From positions 1,749 to 65,748 of the IMG/VR virus record IMGVR_UViG_3300028549_000963: a stretch of DNA of 64,000 bases; one strand, given 5' to 3'. The notes under the pieces are model-generated. The model saw nothing but the letters and a program-made list of their open reading frames with translations, had not been told where the DNA came from and did no database searches. Position 1 is the first letter of the stretch, and each line of letters opens with the position of its first letter. The stretch comes from a virus (Duplodnaviria; Caudoviricetes). Of this stretch, positions 16,606-55,700 are shown in pieces. The position numbers and the translations under genes are program-made.

Positions 16606-17211
16606 ATGAGTGAAACACCGATAGCCGCGAAAGGAGAGAAGAACGCGACGATCATTGAGATCAACCGGGCGTGGGAGACCTTCTCATCCCTAATAGGGGA
16701 TCTGAAGAATAAAATCCGGGAGATCGGATCCGTCGTAGCCTGGCTTCTGGACAATGATCCGGGGGCCCGCGAGATGTTCCGCCGGCTGGGGCTTGATCGG
16801 TTCACCGTCAACAGATTCGCTAAGGTCGGAAGGGGTACGCTCCTTCCGGAGCTTGCCTGTAACTACGGTGGACTTTTCGACAAATTCCCGACCGATCAAC
16901 AGAAGAAGGTACTTCACGAAAAAGTGGAAGCCGTCATACGGGAGGCGAACGGCACATACGCCACCATAATGGTCGACGTACTGGACGCGGACCCCACACT
17001 CCTGATGCGGGTCCTTGCAAGTGACCACATACGCACTCCTTCGGAGCAGAGGCAGTATATCGAAAGGTGTACAAAGGCCATACCTATGGCTGCGACAGCG
17101 GGAAGTACGCAGGAGACCTGGCGGGTATTAAGAGGCGGGAAACTGGAAGTAGCCGGCCCCTGCGTCTTCACGAGGTCGCAGCTGCTCTCCATACTGAAGT
17201 CGATGGACTAG
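16606..17211 (+). CDS. Hypothetical protein
   Basis: AAGGA RBS; 201 aa. Confidence 0.75.
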   Translation: MSETPIAAKGEKNATIIEINRAWETFSSLIGDLKNKIREIGSVVAWLLDNDPGAREMFRRLGLDRFTVNRFAKVGRGTLLPELACNYGGLFDKFPTDQQKKVLHEKVEAVIREANGTYATIMVDVLDADPTLLMRVLASDHIRTPSEQRQYIERCTKAIPMAATAGSTQETWRVLRGGKLEVAGPCVFTRSQLLSILKSMD

Positions 17212-17227
17212 AAATACGGAGGAACCT

Positions 17228-18049
17228 ATGGAAACACCGGAGGAAAAGAAAGCGCGAGGTAGGAAATACTATGCGCGGAACGCAGAACGCATACGCGCAC
17301 GGGTCCGGCAGTGGACTGAGGAGAACCGCGAGAAAAAACGATTGTATGATAAAAAGTACGCCGAAGAAAACAAAAAGCACATAACGGAGGTGCGCAGGAA
17401 ATACCGGGAACGGAATCACGAACGGATCCTAGAGAGGGGGCGCATCTGGCGAGAGAAGAACAAAGAAACGCTCCGTCGTAAGAAGAAAGAATACGCGAAG
17501 AGGAAAAAGGCGCTGGGTATCACGCGGAATCGCGAGAAGGATCTCGCGCGGTTGCGGATGATCTCCGCGAAAAACGGGGCCAACAGGATAAACATGGCCA
17601 TTAGGACCTTAACGTCCCTAGAAAACCAGACCCCAGAGCAGCGGGCCAAGATGATCAGAACCGCGGCGGAAGCACGCGTAAAGAAGGCGGAGAAAGAACG
17701 TATACGCTGTCGGGAAAAGGCACGCGAATACGCCCGCAAATATCCAGAACGGGTAAAAGAAAGTCGTAAAAAGCACTATGCGGAGCATAAAGCGAAGCAA
17801 GCCGCCCGGAAAAAAGCGGAATACCGCGCCATGACAGAGGAACAGAGGGCCAAGCTCCGGGCTAAGAAGCTGGAATGGTCGCGCAAAAACAGAATACGGT
17901 TATCGGAGAAGGCCCGCCGGTACCACTACGAAAGACGCGGACTCCCGGTTCCGCCTAAGAGAGTGGTAAATCCGAATTCAAGGAACGCGATCGCCCAGAG
18001 AAAATATAAGGCGAAGAAGAAAGCGTTACCGAACACCACTTCGGACTAA
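17228..18049 (+). CDS. Highly basic K/R-rich helical repeat protein (no nuclease motif seen)
   Basis: GGAGG RBS; repeated Y/W.E.N.E(K/R) units; no HNH or CxxC motif. Confidence 0.7.
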   Translation: METPEEKKARGRKYYARNAERIRARVRQWTEENREKKRLYDKKYAEENKKHITEVRRKYRERNHERILERGRIWREKNKETLRRKKKEYAKRKKALGITRNREKDLARLRMISAKNGANRINMAIRTLTSLENQTPEQRAKMIRTAAEARVKKAEKERIRCREKAREYARKYPERVKESRKKHYAEHKAKQAARKKAEYRAMTEEQRAKLRAKKLEWSRKNRIRLSEKARRYHYERRGLPVPPKRVVNPNSRNAIAQRKYKAKKKALPNTTSD

Positions 18050-18090
18050 CAAAAAACAAACTAACCCGAGGGACGTCAACCTCGGGAGTC

Positions 18091-18145
18091 CCTGTCCGTG
18101 ACTTATCCGTCACGCTGATGACGGCCTATGGAGGGCCGAAACAGG
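18091..18145 (+). ncRNA. Type III hammerhead ribozyme (variant with an extra C after CUGAUGA)
   Basis: CCTG-T-C / stem I CGTGAC-TTATCC-GTCACG / CTGATGA / C / stem II GGCC-TATGGAG-GGCC / GAAA / CAGG; GUC cleavage triplet ends at 18096. Confidence 0.85.
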
Positions 18146-18193
18146 AATTAGCTTGCGCTGAGAAGCGCATAACCTCACGAAGGGAACAACAGT

Positions 18194-18457
18194 ATGATCA
18201 AGATCGAGAAAAAGTTACTCGCCAACTTTAAGAAGGCGGCTGTCGCGTTAGTGGCCCCGGGCCCCCGGGCTCATATCACGAAGATATTCTTTGTAATCCC
18301 CGGCGTTCCGGGTGAAATCGAGGCGTGGGTCGGGAGCTTCCTCTCCTTCGCTCACCATCAGGATGGAAAAGAATCGAAGCGTCTACGCTTGAAAGATGGT
18401 GTGCGCTATGATAATCTCTCGCAATGGTTAAAGGAAACCGCCGCGAGGGAGATCTAA
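18194..18457 (+). CDS. Hypothetical protein
   Basis: AAGGGA RBS; first gene after the hammerhead. Confidence 0.65.
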   Translation: MIKIEKKLLANFKKAAVALVAPGPRAHITKIFFVIPGVPGEIEAWVGSFLSFAHHQDGKESKRLRLKDGVRYDNLSQWLKETAAREI

Positions 18458-18459
18458 AT

Positions 18460-18852
18460 ATGACTAAGAAGGAAAAGCGTCGCATCCAATTAGGGGTTCA
18501 AAAACGTGAACTCGAAAAAGGATTGCGATCGCTCCCGAAGCGCCGTCTCCGCCGCGTCATAACCGACGAACAGCGGGAGGAGCGGCGCATACGTTCCGAA
18601 CAAACCCGGCTTGACCGGCTGATGGAGCGTATCAGATTTCGTGAAATGCACAACGATTACGCCGAGACCGTCCAGGCTATCGAGGCCAAGCAGGCTTCCG
18701 AGGCACCCGGACGGTTCGGGCGTGGCGAATCCGCCCTGGATCAGTACGTCACTCATGACCTCATCCAGATCGACCGCGACTACCACGGCTGCAGACGGCT
18801 CAACGACCCCGACGACGATGGCGACACCGACGCCTGGGCGCGGGCCGATTAA
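18460..18852 (+). CDS. Hypothetical charged protein
   Basis: GAGGGAG RBS, ATG 18460. Confidence 0.65.
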   Translation: MTKKEKRRIQLGVQKRELEKGLRSLPKRRLRRVITDEQREERRIRSEQTRLDRLMERIRFREMHNDYAETVQAIEAKQASEAPGRFGRGESALDQYVTHDLIQIDRDYHGCRRLNDPDDDGDTDAWARAD

Positions 18853-19105
18853 GGAACTTATGACAGTCTTCGCTATTGAGACCACGAGCATCACGCTTCA
18901 CACGGATGCCGGAGATGGGATTTGCAGTCCGAAGGGGCACAGACTCTATCTCGATATTATCCTCGCGGATTACGTCCTCAGCATCCCGCTGTGGAAGATC
19001 CGCTAACGGCTTCCGCGCGATTTAAACGGCGCGCGGGGGACACACGCCCCGTTGCGGGCCCCGGGTGGGGTTCGCGGCGGGGTTCTTTAATTTCAAAGGA
19101 GACCT

Positions 19106-19489
19106 ATGGATTACCACACTATGTTCAGGAACCTCTGGGCGTGGATCGCCGAGGATCCCTCACGAGAGAAGCATGAGTGGCCGGGCTTCGTGGAGACAGG
19201 GCACATACCGAGCTACTGCCCGGCGTGCGCACACGCCGACCAGATCGGTACCGGCAACCCCGGCGACCGCTGCTATTACTGTCCGTTGGAAGACGGGGCA
19301 AAGAAATCGCAAGCCGGATTCTATGATGACAGGGCGTGTCTCGGCGGATTGTATACGCTTTATCTGACTGCGGCCGCGGACTACCGGAGCTACCGGGAAA
19401 TGATGGCTTCCGTGGAACTAATCGAAGAACAACGCCTGCGCGCCGTCAAGGCCGCTGAAGCGATACGCGACCTCGAATGGAAGGACTGA
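19106..19489 (+). CDS. Cys-rich conserved phage hypothetical protein
   Basis: AAGGAG RBS; W.WIAE.P...K..W, CPAC, CYYCPL, CL.GLY motifs. Confidence 0.75.
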   Translation: MDYHTMFRNLWAWIAEDPSREKHEWPGFVETGHIPSYCPACAHADQIGTGNPGDRCYYCPLEDGAKKSQAGFYDDRACLGGLYTLYLTAAADYRSYREMMASVELIEEQRLRAVKAAEAIRDLEWKD

Positions 19490-19590
19490 TATGCTCTGTA
19501 TCAACTGTAAAGGACGAAGAAGAGATGCAGGCTCTTATCGATAAACTTAACGCACTGGGCGACCTGTACGTTGACCTGGAGAACTGACCT

Positions 19591-44909: not shown

Positions 44910-45259
44910 CAAACACGGTACTGGCTGCCGTCCTCGCCATCTACATGACGGAGAGTGATTGCGGACGGAACGTGCGCGACGGCGACGGCGGAAACGCCGT
45001 CGGGCCGTTCCAGACATGGAAGATCATGGTGAGGGAAGTGAACCGGGTGACCGGTAAGCACTACACCTACGCGGACCGCCGCGACTTCGTGAAGTCGCAG
45101 CAGATGTGCCGTGACTATCTGACCTGGCATTACAATAGAGGCGTCACGAACGAGTTGGCGTTGGCGTCGAAGTGGATCCGCCCTTACGGGCGGGCTCCGG
45201 AACGCCACGTAAGCAAGCTCCGTAAGGCGTTGCTGAAAGTGAAAGAGGTATTGACATGA
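44906..45259 (+). CDS. Lysozyme-like (i-type/destabilase or SLT-like) muralytic enzyme
   Basis: AI..TES.CG....DGD.G.AVGPFQ motif with catalytic-type Glu in the first helix. Confidence 0.65.
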   Translation: MTNTVLAAVLAIYMTESDCGRNVRDGDGGNAVGPFQTWKIMVREVNRVTGKHYTYADRRDFVKSQQMCRDYLTWHYNRGVTNELALASKWIRPYGRAPERHVSKLRKALLKVKEVLT

Positions 45260-46188
45260 CGGACAAAGAACAACAGTTTGTCACTGCGTGCAGGGCTACG
45301 TCGCTCAGCGACGAGAACCGTGCGCAATGGGAACAGTACTGTCATCTAACCTCCGCGGCGGCGAAGACCGCATACGCGGAAAGTGTGATCGACGAATGGA
45401 ACCGTATCCTCGCGGGATCCCCGAGCGGCAAGCCCCCGCCGGATGGGCGGTCTAAGGACTGGTATAAGGAGATCCCACGGGGTCAGTCGAACCCTATCCA
45501 TGCCGCGATGCAGAAGATATGTGATGACGACCTCAAGGCTCAGGAAAAGGATCCGACAGGACGTTCCGCTAAAGATGGCGGAGCTAAACTGGACGCAGGT
45601 AAACCGAGACTTGGATTGGTGCTCGGCGGGTTCGCCAACGCCCTTATCGAAGTCGGAAAGGTCGGCACTCTCGGCGCGGCTAAGTATTCGGACAACGGAT
45701 GGATGACTGTTCCGAACGCCAAGGAACGGTACACCGACGCGGAGCTCCGACACTGTCTGAAACGTCTCGCCGGAGAGATCTACGATCCCGAATGGGGGCT
45801 TCTGCATCTGGCGCATAACGCCTGGAACTCGCTGGCGTTACTCGAACTGGAACTCAGAAGGATCAAGACGGAGAAAGGGGAAACCATACCCGAAGGCACG
45901 ACCTTCGAGAAGGGTTTTGCGATGGTACCGAACGAGGGTCTCAAGTTTGTGATTAAAGGGGGTCTCCCTAAGTGCGAAGCCCTCTCAGGCTTCACGCCGA
46001 TCGACCCGACGGTTCCGGACAAATTTAAGACTAATCAACCAGAGAAGAAGGGAGGTGAAAAAGAAATGGTCAAGAAAGCTAAATGCGCCGCTAAAGGCGG
46101 AGCAGTCAAGCCCGCAGCCAAGCCCGCAGCCAAGGCGGCGATGCCTATGATGCCGGCTAAGAAGATGGCGAAACCCGCTAAGAAGTAG
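45256..46188 (+). CDS. dATP/dGTP diphosphohydrolase-domain (DUF5664-like) protein with K/A/P-rich C-terminal tail
   Basis: GAKLDAGKPRLGL, AL.EV.KV.T.GAAKY..NGW, RY.DA..RH, DPE.GL.HLAH.AWN.L.L. Confidence 0.85.
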   Translation: MTDKEQQFVTACRATSLSDENRAQWEQYCHLTSAAAKTAYAESVIDEWNRILAGSPSGKPPPDGRSKDWYKEIPRGQSNPIHAAMQKICDDDLKAQEKDPTGRSAKDGGAKLDAGKPRLGLVLGGFANALIEVGKVGTLGAAKYSDNGWMTVPNAKERYTDAELRHCLKRLAGEIYDPEWGLLHLAHNAWNSLALLELELRRIKTEKGETIPEGTTFEKGFAMVPNEGLKFVIKGGLPKCEALSGFTPIDPTVPDKFKTNQPEKKGGEKEMVKKAKCAAKGGAVKPAAKPAAKAAMPMMPAKKMAKPAKK

Positions 46189-46752: not shown

Positions 46753-49700
46753 TTATTCCTTTCCCGTTCTGAAGAACCCTGCGGCGGAGGGGTTGTCCTG
46801 GAAGAACTTAACGTCCTTCTCCGTGATCTCGTTCGGCGGCACCACCTTGTAGCCTAGCACGGTCTGAGGCAGTTCGTCCGACGCGAGGAACGCGGAGACG
46901 TCACCGCCCAGATCAGCCGACTGCGACTTCCGAGTATCATACACGCCACGGCCGTACGGGTCAAGGAAGCTCTCACGGATCGCCTGGTTGGAGATCAGTT
47001 TAAGATCGCCCGTACGGTCAATGTGACGGTTCTTATCCCGCGACTTGATTGACTTCATCAGATCACGGTGAATGTAATTCAGCCGGAGGAGACCGCGGGA
47101 CGCGCGTTCCAGGCGTGCCACATCAGCCTTCTCGTTCGGGAATTGCGGGAGGGACTCCTGGATCTCTTCGTAGAGAGGGGCGCGGGCCTCGGCCATCGCG
47201 GCCTTCAGCTCGACCTTGGGATCATAACCGTTGATCCGCAGGGCGTCCAGGTGGTCGATGACCATGGACCGCATATCCGTCCAGGCGCCCTTGTGAGTCT
47301 TCGCGAGGGCGGCGTAGCTGTCCGCGTCGGCCCAGTCCGTGAAGATCTTCTTCATGTCCTTGACCGCGGTCGTCTTCGATGTACCCTTACGGATGATGCC
47401 GACGGCGGAGAGGGCACCCGCTTCCGGGGCCCTGCTGATACCGGCGACGGAGAACGGAAGGAACGCGCCGGCGAGGTTGGCCGTAGCCGACTTGCTCATA
47501 TCCGTCGTGAACCACCGCTCCCAGAAGCCGAGCTCGCTGAACGGCATATCCCACCCCATCGAGGGGTTCTTGCCGGAGAGGCCTTCGAGTGTGCGCTGCA
47601 CAGGCATCGACATCTTCGACGTGAACGACTGATAGGGATTGATGAACCAGTTCGCGACTTCCCAGCCCTGCTTACCGAAATGCATGTAGTACCGGCGCTT
47701 ACCGGTGGTCTTCATGTCGCCCTCGTCGCCCGTGAGCCCGGGGATCAGATCGCCGAACGGGATCCCGAGAACCGTACGCGGGAGCATCTTCTTCAGCCCG
47801 CCGATGAACGGGGAATTACCCATGCGCCGCAGGAGCGGAGTGATGTCCGCGTCATGCGCACGCCCGGGTTCATTCTTCCACATCGCCACCTTATCGTCAT
47901 CGTCGTCGCCGGATCCGCTTCCAATACCGTACGCAGCCAGCTGCATGAGAGCAGGTACGCCCCACATGACGTGGAAGTACATGCGCGCCCAGCGTCCGAA
48001 CAGGTAGGCGCGGGTCTTTTGCCCCGTGCTCATGCCGAACAGTCTGCGTGTCAGTACACCGCCGCCACCGGCGAGCCATGCGCCGAACGTCCATTCCCAG
48101 GAGAACCACATGACCTTCATGACGTTGAGGAACCGAGGAGTCATATAGGCGAAGTTCGTGAAATCAATACCGCCGATTTCGGGGTTGCCGATTTCACGGG
48201 CCCATTCGCGCATATCACGGACGGGATCGAACCAGCGACCGGCCTTCCGTGCGGCTTCCGCCGCGCGGTTCGTAGCCAGGGCCAGTGCGGCCATCTTCGT
48301 CGCGTTAATGAAATACTCGAACGCCAGGGTGGACGGAGCGTCGAGCAATCCGTTCATGACGGCCTTCGCGTGCTGCGCGGCCCTGTTACCATAGGTGTTA
48401 CGGACCATCGCCACTGCGGAGTCTATATCCCGCAGGAGGACGGACTTGTCATGGTCGGTGATGTTGCTCACGCGGGTGAGGATCTTCGCGTTCACCAGGT
48501 TGGCGTGGGTGATAGCCTTGATCAGAGCCGGGTCGTCCGAGCCGATCGTGTCGAGGAAGTCCATGAACTTCGGCGCGTCGAGACCCATGTCCTTCATGCG
48601 ATCGGAGAACCAGCCCTTGCCCTTCGCCATCTTTTCGACGGCGCGGCGCCCCGTTTCCGGCAGGAAGCCGGAGAGCGTGGCGGTCATGCCGGAGGCGGCG
48701 ACCTGGGACTCGAACACCGTGGCGATCGGGAAGAACCAGGAGAACATGACGCTCATGGACTTCGACCAGGTGAGGACGCGGTTCAGCTTCCCGTCGATCG
48801 CCGTCCTGTGCATAAATCCGCCGACCGCGAATAGCTGTTCCATCATACCGGAGGCTTCACCGCCCGTCAGCTTGTTGAGGATCGCGTATGTCGGATCGTC
48901 CGCCGGATCCTGGGCCGCCATCACTTCCGACACGCTTACGACTTCCGGCGGGAGCGTCACTTTCGTGAACCCCGTGGTCCGGACATCGCGGAGCATGTCA
49001 TAAAGTTTCTTGGCGTTCTCGCGCCCGCTCTTGGACTCGTCATAAACGAACATCGTGTCGCCCGGCCGGCCGTAGGAACGGATCCAATACCGCGCGGCGG
49101 CTTGCCACACGACATCCTGGATCGTATCGTCATTGGCCTCGCCGGGACGCATGATGATAAGGGGCTTTCCGTCCGGACCCTTCGTCAGCAGGGATGCGTT
49201 CAGCGCGGCCCTGTATTTGATAGCGCGACCCATGTCACGCCCGAACCGTCCGAGCGCCTCATAGGAGGTCAGGTTGGCGGGGAGTGCGCCCGTCATGTTA
49301 TAGATGTCATGGAAGGAAGGCCCGATAGAACCGAAGTCTACGTTCTCCTCGGCGGCCGCGCGTTCCATCGCATTCATGAAGCCTTCATAGCCGGCGTCCT
49401 TGAGGTCGACCTTCTTCACGAGGCCTCCGCGCCATGCCGTCTCATGCAGCTTACGCACGGACAGACGGTAGATCTCCGCCGCCAGATCCTTCAGCAGGGC
49501 GTTGGGTGTACCGAAGCCGGGGGCGACGTTCCGGAAGGACGGGTCGCTCGTGATCAGACGCGCGACAGTCTCTGCGGATTCGTTACCCTCGAACCGGGTG
49601 CCCGTGTTGAGATCACGGTACAGCTGGAGCATACGGGCGTAGTTCTGATTATCCGCCACGGATGCTACGGTCTTCCACCCCGAGAGGGATGTCTTGCTGA

Positions 49701-52700
49701 CCGAGGCCTTGACGGATTTCTCGAGGGAGTCATACGCCTTCTCGACTTCATCCCGGTACTCGGGTGTCGGGGGTACGTCACGTTTCCTGGCGTCCGCCTG
49801 GTAGAAAGCGCCGCCTCGGAACAGAGGAGCCATCGGGCCGTTGTCGAGCATCATCTTTCCTTCCGCGTCGGCGAGCCAGCCGATGGATGCGTAGGAAGTC
49901 TTGGCCTTCAGGTACTCGCTGCGAAGTTCCGTCGCCAGCTTCTCCATATCAAAGTCAGTCGACTCACGACCTGCGGCGATCAGCTTCTCCAGTGCGGACG
50001 AAAGTTTACCCGCGCGACCCTTGAACTCGGCATCAACTTCGTTCACGGGGATCGCGAAGCGGGCGTCGTACAGGGAGACGCGGCGTGTGCGCGAACCGTC
50101 GATCGACAGTTCCTTACGCTCACGGGCGTACAGCCAGCCGCGCTTATTCAACCGGTGCAGGAATACCTGCTCGGGGTCGTTCTCGTTATCCCATGCGTCC
50201 TCGAACCTGGTGGACGCGCGGGTCTCGCCGATCGCGCGCAGGATTGTCGCCAGAGCCTTGGTGCGCATGACCGCCGGTACGTTGTTGGCGATGTTCTCCA
50301 TGGCGATGTCGAGCTTGTACGTGCGCCCGGCTACGCCGGCCACGCGCTTTGCGGACATGTCCATAAAGGTCTCGACCAGTTCTATGTCAGTCATTGACGC
50401 CCACTTGACAGGGAGCACGTCATAGATCGTCTTCCACGGCAGGTCGGAGACTTCAAGAATGTTTCCGAGGGGCACGTTGGCCCTATCCTTCGCGCTTCCC
50501 GCCCGCATATAAACGGCCTTCGAGAAGAAGTCCACAAGGGCGTACTCCTCGCGGGAGAACTTATGTCCGAGTTCGTCACGGAAGAAACCGGAACGCAGAT
50601 ACTTGATGCGCGTCGCGAGGCTCTCATTGCTCTCCCAAGAGTACTTGCCGTCACGGATCGTGATGCCGGAGGCTTTCTCCTTGCGGGCGAACCGTATCAT
50701 CCCTTCGTCGCCGAGACCGAGCATCAGCCTCTGGTCCTCGGCCTTATGCAGGAACCGCGTAGCCGTGGCTTCCGTGGTGCCGTCCTGCAGGACGTCGCGC
50801 AGCTCGAGCCCGTCATAGTCCGGCAGCACGAAGCTGGCGATCCAGAAGTCCGTGCCGAGGATCTTGATGTCATAAGCGTCGATCTCATCGGCGTATCCGG
50901 TACGCTCGTTAAATTCCATGGCTTCGGAGAGCGAGGTCTCGCGGTCCGCGGCGATCGCCGTCCCGTCTTCGAGAGCGAGCAGCTCCTCGAATTGCGGGTT
51001 CTCGGATCCGCGCACGGCGTGTACGCCGGTGCGTCCGACAGCCAGCGCCGCGTGCAGATAGACGAGGGCGCGGACGCTCGCGTCATAACGCTGCCCCGCC
51101 CTGTCCTGACCGCGGAAGGATTCGAGCGCGAGGGCTTCGGTGATGAGGATCTTATGCAAGTTGCCCTGTACCGAACCGAGGGAGAGCATCAGAGCCTGGA
51201 ATTCACCCTGGATCTCCTGTGACTTATGCGCGGCTTTCAGACGGCCCGTGCGTTCATCCAGCAGAAGACCGCGGAGTTCGTTGAATGCGAAGCGGACGGT
51301 AAGCCCCGTCGGATTCGCGCTTCCGGGCGCGTCCATGAGTACCGCCGCCATGGCGTTCTTCTCAGCCAGGCGGATCATCTCATTGACCGTCGCGCCGAAC
51401 GTGACCCTCGCGTCGTGGGCGTTCTGCCCCACCAGTGCGTTGGCGATGTTCACAGCATGGCGGCTCTTCGCCGTCGTATAAGCCTTGCGGGCGTTCTGGT
51501 AGACTTCCTTGTCGAGCTTGTCCCTCATGTCCTCCAGATAAGTCTGTGACGCTGCGAGCCCGAGGAAGGCCTCACCTGTCTTGCGGTCCACTCCCGTCTC
51601 CCAATCCTGCAGGAGCTGGCGGGCCAGTTCGGAAGCCTCGAGGCTGTTGGCCCCGGCGACTACGATGCCCATGTCGGACTCTAACTTTTTCTTATCCGCG
51701 GTCTGGATCGACACGCCGGGCTTGACCTTTACGGCTTCCCCGACCTGTCTCGGCTGAACCACGGGCTCCGCGTTCTCGAGCCCTGTCTCCGCGGGGGCGT
51801 TCTCACGGGGAGTTTCCCCGTCGACATCGCCCGAGGGCTGCGCGGCACCTTCCGCCTGCGCTGACGGCACGGGGGCGACGGGCGTCCATCCCGGGACTCC
51901 GCTCTCGCGCGGTATCTCCCCGTAGGATCTCGCCAGCACGTTTAATTTCTTCGGGCGGAACTGGCTGAGTTCGTCTTCCTCGTCAATAAACGCGGAAGCG
52001 TCGATACCCTCTTCCATATCCTCGACCGGTGCCTGGGCTCCGACGGTGGTGGTCTCCGCGTTCGGGAGGGCTTCGCCGAAGATCGCGTCCACGATGGACT
52101 TCGTATGCGGCGTGGCCGTCGCGTCCACCAGGAAGGTGTCGGCGTTCTCCGCGCGGTAGAGTTCCTTCGTCTCGCGGGACAGGGGGATGATATAGGTTTC
52201 CGTGACGTCGAGGCCGCGCATCGCGAGGACGCGGCGGTAGGCCTCGATCTGCACACGGTGGCGTTCGCCCTTGGACTCGCCTTCGATAACACCGTCCACG
52301 CGATAAGTCTCGTTGTAGACGTTGGCGATGTGCGGGTTCGACTTCATCGTCTTCAGATCGTACAGCGCGTATGTGCCGTCGGCCTTGCGGACGAGAACGT
52401 CCACGGTACCGGCATCCTCGCCGGCCCATGCGATAAATTCGGTAGCCACGGCGCCCTTGGCCCGCAGGAAGTCCCGCAGGAACACTAGGTCCGCGCGGTC
52501 TGACGTCTCCAGCTTCCCGCTCAGAAGATCTTCGAGAATCTTATGCTCGACAGTCCCCTCCTCGGAGGTGGCGTTCCACTCAGCCATGACCTGCGCGACA
52601 GTCATGCTGCGCTTCTCGGCCTGCTGTTTAGCGCGGGTCTCGCGGTCGAAGAAGAACAGGCTGAAGTCGCCGATCTTCGTCGTGATGGAGTCGACTGTCC

Positions 52701-55700
52701 GGCCGTCCGGCAGATCGTAGACATGCTTTGTCTTATCCGACCCCTCGGCCTTGACTTCCCGCATGACCGCTCCGGGCATCGTCCGTGCGATGAAATCCTG
52801 CAGGCTTTCCTCGGGGGCGGGTTCCGCCAGCGCGTACTTGACCGCGGGGGTGTAGACGCTCGTCTCGAGGGCGCCGACCAGCATCTCGCCAGTTACGGCG
52901 CCGGTGATGTTACCGTCCGCGTCAGTGATGACGGCCTTGGGTCCGGCTGCGAGAGCCAGGTCCGCCGCGATCACATTGTCAGAGCGGTTCTGTCCGGCCA
53001 TCTGACCGTTCATGGCGGCCTCGAATAACGCCTTGTTTGCGGCGAACAGCCCGTCCTTCTTCATAAGGTCGCGACCGAACGCCGTGTCGAGCATGGCGCT
53101 ATATTCATTCAGTGCCTCCTGCGCGCGCTTCGTCTCTCCGGCGGCGGCGAGGATGTTGGCGTCAATCTGCACTGCGGACACAAGGGCCAGAGTCGCCCCC
53201 GGATCCCTGTAGCCGGTCTTGTCATAGAGGTAGGATACCCCGTTGGCCGTGCTTGCCGCGACGGGCAGGCCGCGCGCCGTGTAGTCCAATGACAACAGGC
53301 GCAGAGCGCGGGCCGCGGAGGCTGCGGAGAACTGGGCTGAGGCCTTCGTACGACCGTTCCAGGTGCCCTTCGCAAAGCCGAGGCCACCCTTGATGACGGC
53401 TGGTAACAGGTACGCATCCTTAGTCGCCTTGCCGGCTTCCGCCAGGGACAGGTACATGGAGGCGCGGGCCCGGTCAAGTTCGATCATGGGCTCCGAGGCC
53501 CCCTTCTCGCGGAGGATGACGGAAGTCTTCGGTTGCTCCGGGATCTTCTTTGTGCCGAGAACTTTCGGCGCCGCCACGGGTGTGATCGGTTCGTATCCGC
53601 GTGCCTTGATCTCGCCTTCTCCGAAGAAAGCCTGCAGCAGATCGGCTTCTCCCGCTCCTGTGTCGGGAGTACGGGCTTCGTACCCTGCGTGGAATACGCG
53701 GGGCTTCCCGCCTTCGTACAGGGACTGCAGCTCGGACACGGCGTTCGCCTCCAGGCGGAGGGTGTCCGCATCGGCTCCGAGTCCGTTGGCGACGGCATCG
53801 GCGACCTTGCGGCTGATCTCGAGCTGGACTTCCAGACCGAATGCGGGGAGCATCGACTGGCGTTCGCGCACGGAGGTGAGCGAGCGGGGCGCGGCGAGGG
53901 CCGAGTACTGCAACAGCAGGTAATAAATGTCGGATGCAGTGAACTGCTCCGTCACCTTATTGCCGTCCTTATCAAGGTACGTGAACGGGATCGTGCCTTC
54001 GGGGACTCCGTGAACCTTGGTCGCTCCGTCGCGGAGGGCCGTCAGACCTTCACGCATGCTTGTCGGAAGGCTGTCCCCGGATGAGGCGGAGGCCATGCCG
54101 ATCGTCGGCATCCGGTTACGGGTCGAAGGAGCGAGCACCGCCGAGATGAAATCATTCGACGGGATCTTGCCCGACCGGTACTGATCCGAGTATGCGCGGA
54201 AGAACCGGCTCCAGACCTGCTCGACTACGAGCGGGAACCGTACCGGCTTCTGTGACACGCCGCCGAACGCGACCAGTTCCTGTTCGCGCTCCGTGAGCAG
54301 GAGCTTGCCGGGGATGACGCGATCGATCTTCTCCTGCGTCTCTTTAGGTGTCATGTCCAGGGTCGCGCGGAACGGCAGGAACCGTTCGACGATGAGCTGG
54401 AGGGGTTCCTTATCAATAGTGACCGTGGCGCTGAGTGCGCCGTCCGCTCCGACCTTGACCGTGCTCTTCAGGATCTTGCCCTTCTTGGTCTGCGGAAGCA
54501 GGGTCTTCAACTCGCGGGCGAGCTTGGACTTCTCTATGGACCCGGAGTGCGCGCGGGAGGTCACTGCGAGCCACGCCTGTGACGCGTCAAGCAGAGCCAT
54601 CAGCCTCGGTTCGCGGACGGGTATGTTCAGACCGGCCAGCTTTTTCTTACCACCGACGATTGCCTCGCCCGCATTCCGGACGTCCTTCTCCAGACGCTCC
54701 ATCTTGTCGACGAACGCCCCGTCCATCTTGTTCCAGTCAAGAGCCCGTTTCATCTCCGCCACGGACTGCATGCCGCGGATAAGCTCGGCCACGCGGCGGA
54801 GCCCTTCGTATGTGGATGCGCTGACCCCGCGTTCGGACGCGAGAGCCACGATCTTCGAGGCCGAACCGGGGCGCATGAAAGACAGGATGCCGTCCTTGTA
54901 CGGATCGAGCGTGCCTTTCCTCTGCAGCTCCATCTCGTATTGCTTGATTGCCGCGCGTGCGGTCTTGTCCACGTTAGCCGTGTCCGTATGTCCGTCCGGG
55001 TCAAGGTCGAGTCTGTACATAGCCTCGATCGCCTTACCTTCATCCGACTTGAGCCAGGCCAGCCAGAGCGAATGGAACTCCTTGAAGCCAGCAAGGTCCT
55101 TCACCCCGCTGTTATACGCGAGGAAGGCGTATAGATCCATCGTGGCCGGCGTGATACCAGCGGTGATGGCCAGACCGTCCTTGAGGAAGTCGTACGTGCC
55201 ATTGGTGAGCACTGAAAGCATGAACTCCAGGAACCTCGCGGATTCCGCGTCCGGCTTGCCCTTACCACCGAATACGCGGGCCCACGCGGCCTTGCCTTCG
55301 GGCGAAAGTGCCGCGGGTGCCGTGAGAACCGGAGGCGCGAATGCACCTGTGGCAGGATCCGGGGAGAAAGCTGTGAGCTCGATGCCCGCGGGGATGACGT
55401 AGTCGAGGATGCCCGTACGGCAAGTGACTGCCAGTCCGCGTCCGCGCCCTGCAATTTCCGCGGCCATGGTGGCGAACTCCGCCGCCGCCTTAGAGTCCGT
55501 GAAGTCGGGCGCCGTGTGCCCGGGGAACTTTAACACCCCGTCGGTAAAGAGGGTGGACTCGACGCGGCCTGCGTTGGCCCAGCCGACGAAAGTCTCCAAC
55601 AGTCCGCCGATCCAGCCCGGCAGCTCGCCGACGTTGGCGCCCATGCGGGTCAGCTCGATAGCCATCGCGTTCGAGATCGCGCGGACGGCCTTGTCGTGCT

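Follow-up and report, generated by a model that had tools for sequence, protein, structure and literature searches.

The 55-base element at positions 18091-18145 of the window, by which we mean the whole 64,000-nt stretch of DNA that was analysed, is, judging by its sequence and its relatives, a genuine type III hammerhead ribozyme of a phage subfamily, with cleavage predicted. We observed the motif itself, found it statistically supported and a member of a covarying family, and saw that it sits in a recurrent arrangement of hairpin, ribozyme and start codon. Since 2010-2011 it has been known that phages have hammerheads between their genes, and the window hammerhead is an ordinary further case, the sole unusual feature of which is an extra C (C18122) in the core. 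As to its function, we think it likely that, within the untranslated gap in which it lies, it cleaves itself co-transcriptionally, separating two cistrons; cleavage in vivo, tolerance of C18122 and an effect on the fate of the mRNA are what we infer for this role.

Written as RNA, the + strand of the element reads CCUGU-C / CGUGAC-UUAUCC-GUCACG / CUGAUGA / C / GGCCU-AUGGA-GGGCC / GAA / ACAGG. The parts follow the type III order, with helices of 5, 6 and 5 bp made of standard pairs throughout, stems I and II being capped and stem III open, and the minimum free energy fold computed with RNAfold is the three-way junction. All of the conserved core is present, namely CUGAUGA at 18115-18121, GAA at 18138-18140, the A18141-U18095 pair (A15.1-U16.1) and C18096 at H17, a position that must not be G, while G16.2 pairs with C15.2 within stem III. 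Stem II consists of GGCC and one U.G pair and carries a 5-nt loop II. In an insertion-free core the G10.1-C11.1 pair would directly follow A9; here C18122 intervenes. An earlier note on this DNA, made from the letters alone, had called a type III hammerhead that cleaves after C18096. The core, the helices and the match to a covariance model agree with this call, the cleavage site being predicted, and the coordinates, the loop sequences, the UCC/GGA complementarity and the extra C that the note gave proved correct when the sequence was read again. All coordinates are collected in Table 1.

Table 1. Features of the hammerhead locus (window positions) and related ribozymes on other contigs (handle and position on the contig)
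Feature	Position	Strand	Remark
Upstream ORF, 273 aa, K/R/E-rich, stop codon TAA at 18047-18049	17228-18049	+	no Pfam or PHROG family
Strong hairpin, CCCGAGG / 8-nt loop / CCUCGGG, its 3' end 4 nt from the ribozyme	18065-18086	+	no U-tract after it on the + strand
Stem III, 5' strand CCUGU (G16.2 = 18094, U16.1 = 18095)	18091-18095	+	pairs with 18141-18145
C17, predicted scissile bond 18096/18097	18096	+	from its place in the hammerhead consensus
Stem I hairpin, CGUGAC / loop I UUAUCC (18103-18108) / GUCACG	18097-18114	+	strands 18097-18102 and 18109-18114, 6 bp
Core strand C3-A9, CUGAUGA	18115-18121	+	
Extra C between A9 and G10.1	18122	+	predicted pair with G12 (18138)
Stem II hairpin, GGCCU / loop II AUGGA (18128-18132) / GGGCC	18123-18137	+	strands 18123-18127 and 18133-18137
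G12-A13-A14 (18138-18140), then stem III 3' strand ACAGG (A15.1 = 18141)	18138-18145	+	
Small 6-bp hairpin with GAGA loop, between ribozyme and ribosome-binding site	18154-18169	+	
Shine-Dalgarno-like AAGGGA (18180-18185) and ATG (18194-18196) of the downstream ORF	18180-18196	+	
Downstream ORF, 87 aa	18194-18457	+	orphan in a 5.8-billion-protein collection
Unrelated hammerhead family with C after A9	L130:12626-12684, L138:2285-2339, L149:2909-2963, L159:1503-1559, L184:1968-2026; also L139, L166		
Contigs with hammerhead arrays	L060 (4 copies in 4 kb), L106 (4), L097 (3), L114 (3), L092, L105, L118 (2 each)		
Companion ribozymes (twister-sister, twister-P5 or type II hammerhead) on type III contigs	L056:4894-4973, L128:6019-6086, L126:1038-1107, L068:4860-4930		

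The relatives of the element were collected with a degenerate pattern (CUGAUGA, 0-1 nt, GGCC, 4-10 nt, GGCCGAAAC), which matched more than 119 viral contigs, nearly all of them with a full type I or type III hammerhead; parsing these contigs with a descriptor gave about 50 distinct type III copies. A covariance model (R1, from alignment A2) of 20 phage type III hammerheads, from which the window was left out, aligns to 18091-18145 from end to end with 62.9 bits (E 1.7e-16) and 15/15 pairs standard, although the training set was picked by a pattern derived from the core and stem II of this very site; this share of the score is there by construction, and the parts independent of that choice are stems I and III, G-U-C and loop I. 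The next matches of this model reach at most 12 bits, and among 70 family members the window hammerhead ranks mid-pack. In a model-based alignment of the family (A3), 96.3% of the cells are paired, both positions have changed in 12 of the 15 pairs, and the covariation score reaches 0.704 in comparison to 0.136 for shuffled and at most 0.085 for slid partners. The predicted helices are backed by this covariation among relatives, which is evidence at the level of the family.

In phages and prophages, hammerheads occur in clusters in the gaps between genes (PMC3088659). Like the type III hammerheads of phages, prophages and bacteria (Rfam clan CL00010, RF00008; PMC3088659, PMC6155905), the window hammerhead has the core, the type III topology and the GUC triplet, and it also shares with the known ones the G10.1-C11.1 pair, an intergenic place between small uncharacterised genes and, putatively, a Watson-Crick contact of loop I with loop II (PMC3088659). 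It differs from them in being one copy and not a cluster, in having no score in the Rfam models and in the extra C after A9. We also noted viral contigs on which near-identical hammerheads of type I or type III stand in arrays at a spacing of 0.5-1.5 kb, the window having a single copy, and type III contigs with a twister-sister, a twister-P5 or a type II hammerhead within a few kb, as found at Rfam gathering thresholds (Table 1).

The closest relatives are 18 copies, 2 viral and 16 metagenomic (L081, L126, L191-L206), that share the 15-nt stem II/loop II of the window, GGCC-UA[A/U/C]GGAG-GGCC, with one variable loop base allowed; this stretch is identical to the window in six, and the other 12 differ at the variable base only. 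A clear type III arrangement was found in 15 of the 18. Stems I and III are different throughout, with pairing kept, and loop I, where readable, has CC (once CU) at its end, facing the GG of loop II. Most of the clear type III copies resemble the window in having a 6-bp stem I, a loop I of 4-8 nt that ends in CC, one base inserted after A9 and a short stem III. They differ from it in their flanking genes, which are unrelated, and in the inserted base, which across the 18 copies is U (16) or A (2) and in no case C.

The earlier note had drawn attention to the complementarity of the two loops, where U18106-C18107-C18108 of loop I can pair with G18130-G18131-A18132 of loop II, and the comparison with relatives now adds evidence for it. 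As loop II varies in length, a model-based alignment splits the partners across columns, and we therefore assessed the contact with a register-free test. Complementarity of at least 3 bp was seen in 35% of matched loop pairs, compared to 13% of mismatched pairs and 16% of shuffled loops, and different subfamilies use different complementary sets (GCU/AGC, GCC/GGC, UCC/GGA, UCA/UGA and AGCA/UGCU). The CC/GG pattern of the subfamily, these alternative sets and the excess among matched pairs thus support a putative Watson-Crick contact between loop I and loop II in the window hammerhead. About 40% of hammerheads use a base-paired contact of stems I and II (a pseudoknot), and in type III such a contact is typical of ribozymes whose stem I exceeds stem II by two pairs (PMC3088659), a difference that is fitted by the 6 bp of stem I and the four G-C pairs of stem II in the window.

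The extra base after A9, which the earlier note had also pointed out, stands at a position that tolerates insertion in nature (PMC1636495): among 133 pattern matches on viral contigs the inserted base is U in about 40%, A in three and C in none. The CChMVd (+) hammerhead of De la Pena & Flores (2001), as described in PMC1636495, has a natural extra A10 between A9 and G10.1, and is alike in being an active type III ribozyme with a one-base insertion at the same core position; it differs from the window in that the base is A and not C, and in that the RNA is that of a viroid, in the global fold of which this base also plays a part. A dedicated search for C followed by the GGCC stem II gave no other copy among viral contigs and 13 matches in prokaryotic genomes (596 Gb), none of which looks like a true hammerhead. 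As candidates for C-bearing hammerheads these 13 were rejected, since they look coding or due to chance and are without stem I or GUC.

In nearest-neighbour folding with ViennaRNA, a C18122:G18138 pair is favoured by 2.0 kcal/mol (P = 0.96), and G12, which is G18138, is unpaired in 3.6% of the ensemble of the window hammerhead. The same pairing of the inserted base with G12 has a P of 0.38 in relatives with U (a U.G wobble) and of 0 in those with A. G12 is the general base of the hammerhead reaction; the C18122:G12 pair would therefore have to open for catalysis, and the activity of the ribozyme may be reduced by this predicted pairing of C18122 with a catalytic base. A C at the equivalent position of CChMVd is reportedly strongly detrimental. 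If one adds that none of the 18 closest relatives and none of the 133 viral-contig matches has a C here, and that three collections hold no other real copy of C with the GGCC stem II, the element could be read as a hammerhead by descent that has been crippled or much slowed: a U-to-C change would have let C18122 pair with G12 and extend stem II, leaving a core that is rarely active and either a relic or a weak, slow site. This is the alternative that survives best, and we still regard it as rather unlikely. The low share of free G12 and the favourable energy of the pair come from nearest-neighbour energies, which ignore the tertiary core, and the rest of the ribozyme is intact (the core bases, 16/16 pairs and the loop-loop complementarity), where decay should have brought further damage.

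A C at this position is also carried by other phages, which speaks against a crippled site as well. We found an unrelated family with the string CUGAUGA-C-GGC-AUGA-GCC-GAAAC, in five distinct sequences on seven large phage contigs (64-140 kb; Table 1), in which this string is invariant, loop I is UAAAAGU and stems I and III show compensatory changes. It agrees with the window in the inserted C, the predicted C:G12 pair, the type III order, the intergenic place, the hairpin upstream and the occurrence on large phage contigs, and differs in its 3-bp stem II, its AUGA loop and its 7-bp stem I with the loop UAAAAGU, and in that there is no obvious Watson-Crick complementarity between its loops. 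Two further copies, L173 and the type I copy L165, have C after A9 and the same predicted C:G12 pairing. As an independent family, L173 and L165 carry a C there, the base appears to be compatible with long-term retention. One could go further and see in the C after A9 a built-in brake, which would hold an inactive state by means of the G12 pair until it is released by temperature, by ions, by a protein or by the machinery of transcription or translation, but we consider this improbable.

The 273-aa and the 87-aa ORF, both on the + strand, are 144 nt apart with the ribozyme between them, so that its cleavage, itself predicted, would split a polycistronic message as the earlier note had claimed. 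The genes nearby form a + strand run of small uncharacterised genes that precedes a D5-type primase-helicase, a helicase, a PD-(D/E)XK nuclease and a family A DNA polymerase. The assignment of this run to an early operon in the earlier note is plausible by position only, with small + strand genes upstream of replication genes; an early or middle transcription unit is plausible. We found no sigma-70-like promoters in 17000-19500. The claim that the ribozyme is a second RNA-processing device in an RNA-rich phage found no support from these tools, as ARAGORN identified no tRNA or tmRNA in positions 1-64000 of the window and no Rfam family was found there. The tRNA-like RNAs that the earlier note had placed at 9439-10188 were not recognised by ARAGORN or Rfam.

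No orthologous locus was found by BLASTN against GenBank phages, through the flanking proteins or by tblastn against 205 other loci: BLASTN of 17000-19200 against GenBank phages gave no match, the upstream 273-aa ORF had weak partial matches only, and tblastn of eight neighbouring ORFs against the 205 loci gave one weak match (L002). Elsewhere in the window, a giant ORF of at least 5,748 aa (46753-63999, minus strand) occupies more than a quarter of its length and runs off its end, and an ORF at 45256-46188 (+) contains the N-terminal domain of a dATP/dGTP diphosphohydrolase (PF18909, E 1.4e-24), presumably a MazZ-type enzyme, associated with 2-aminoadenine (Z) genomes.

The surroundings of the ribozyme follow a pattern seen in its relatives. 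The 40 nt upstream of the window ribozyme fold at -15.0 kcal/mol, and the same stretch folds at -12 kcal/mol or below in 55% of 51 type III copies compared to 15% of controls (p = 3.6e-10), with the upstream hairpin mostly ending 0-5 nt from the ribozyme. Downstream, a Shine-Dalgarno sequence and a start codon follow in 43 of the 51 copies, at a median of 24 nt. The succession of stop codon, hairpin, ribozyme, and then Shine-Dalgarno sequence and start codon is thus a layout that recurs across about 50 phage examples, and it fits the idea of mRNA processing but does not settle it. In the window, the hairpin at 18065-18086 also scores as intrinsic-terminator-like on the minus strand, where it has a T-rich tail, with no minus-strand gene near.

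In the mechanism that we propose, stems I, II and III would form around the CUGAUGA / GAAA core while the polycistronic RNA is being synthesised, and the U-C-C of loop I (18106-18108) would kiss the G-G-A of loop II (18130-18132) and hold stems I and II parallel. The RNA would then cut itself between C18096 and C18097. The upstream product would end in the 18065-18086 hairpin followed by 10 nt and a 2',3'-cyclic phosphate, and the downstream product would begin with a 5'-OH and the folded ribozyme body, followed by the small hairpin, the ribosome-binding site and the ATG at 18194. With the two cistrons uncoupled in this manner, a different stability or translation of each would become possible, and we infer that the 5'-OH end may stabilise the downstream message. 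The processing of polycistronic transcripts is a proposed and unproven role of such hammerheads (PMC6765202).

Cleavage could also be imagined to act as a translational switch, in which the AAGGGA ribosome-binding site is masked by the UCCCU at 18089-18093, close to the cut on its 5' side, until cleavage frees it. In the minimum free energy and centroid folds of 18045-18200, 18089-18093 indeed pair with 18181-18185, and the duplex of 5' flank and Shine-Dalgarno sequence has an energy of -8.0 kcal/mol. Yet over 55 type III loci the mean energy of matched duplexes was -5.5 kcal/mol against -5.3 kcal/mol for mismatched ones (p = 0.43), 11% of unrelated flanks bind the window's Shine-Dalgarno sequence as well as its own flank does, and the hammerhead would be fully transcribed about 40 nt before that sequence. 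Activation of translation by such unmasking was dropped for want of an excess of matched duplexes across the 55 loci, and we regard it as very unlikely.

A loose type III descriptor (stem I of at least 4, stem II of at least 2 and stem III of at least 3 pairs) has one match in the window, the 18091-18145 site, and none in 25.6 Mb of simulated sequence, made up of 400 window-equivalents drawn, on both strands, from a first-order Markov model with the dinucleotide make-up of the window. When all 39 CUGANGA sites of the window were scanned for type I, II and III arrangements, 18091-18145 was the sole hammerhead, and no other of any topology was found. The core strings alone (CTGATGA-N8-38-GAAAC) are expected 0.26 times per window.

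Rfam 15 recognised no family at its gathering thresholds anywhere in the 64,000 nt, and a 351-nt slice with the site gave nothing at E<=10. The search with the Rfam hammerhead models, by which the earlier note had proposed to check its call, came back negative in both respects, the element staying below the gathering threshold of RF00008 (Hammerhead_3). The same models were run on 16 phage loci as a control (L022, L048, L081, L114, L016 and L017 are examples), where they missed all 14 type III and both type I hammerheads at matched positions but found a twister-sister, a twister-P5 and two type II hammerheads. Since Rfam misses 16/16 comparable phage copies, its negative result is uninformative for this class of hammerhead. 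That the site is a chance hammerhead consensus in a GC-rich structured spacer, the real role of which lies in its hairpins (e.g. as terminator or stabiliser), is an idea that the missing Rfam match and the unremarkable frequency of the core strings by themselves could suggest, but it is effectively refuted by the covariance model (E about 1e-16), by a stem II/loop II that is the same as in 6 natural copies and differs from the other 12 at one variable loop base, and by the lack of any match to the full descriptor in the simulation, and it also leaves aside that loop I ends in the same CC as in relatives and that the site is intergenic, on the coding strand and in a layout typical for the family.

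On a practical level, typical phage type I and type III hammerheads are missed by the Rfam models, so that annotation pipelines undercount them systematically, while a simple descriptor together with a purpose-built model detects them easily. Taken alone, the window hammerhead matters little; of modest value are the undercount brought out by the control and the natural test cases that this copy with its rare core variant, together with the C-bearing family, offers for the tolerance of a G12-pairing base in the hammerhead core. If the C after A9 did act as a brake, the proportion of cut and uncut message would be set by a hammerhead that is attenuated or conditional by nature, and the same principle would apply to the other, conserved phage family with this C.
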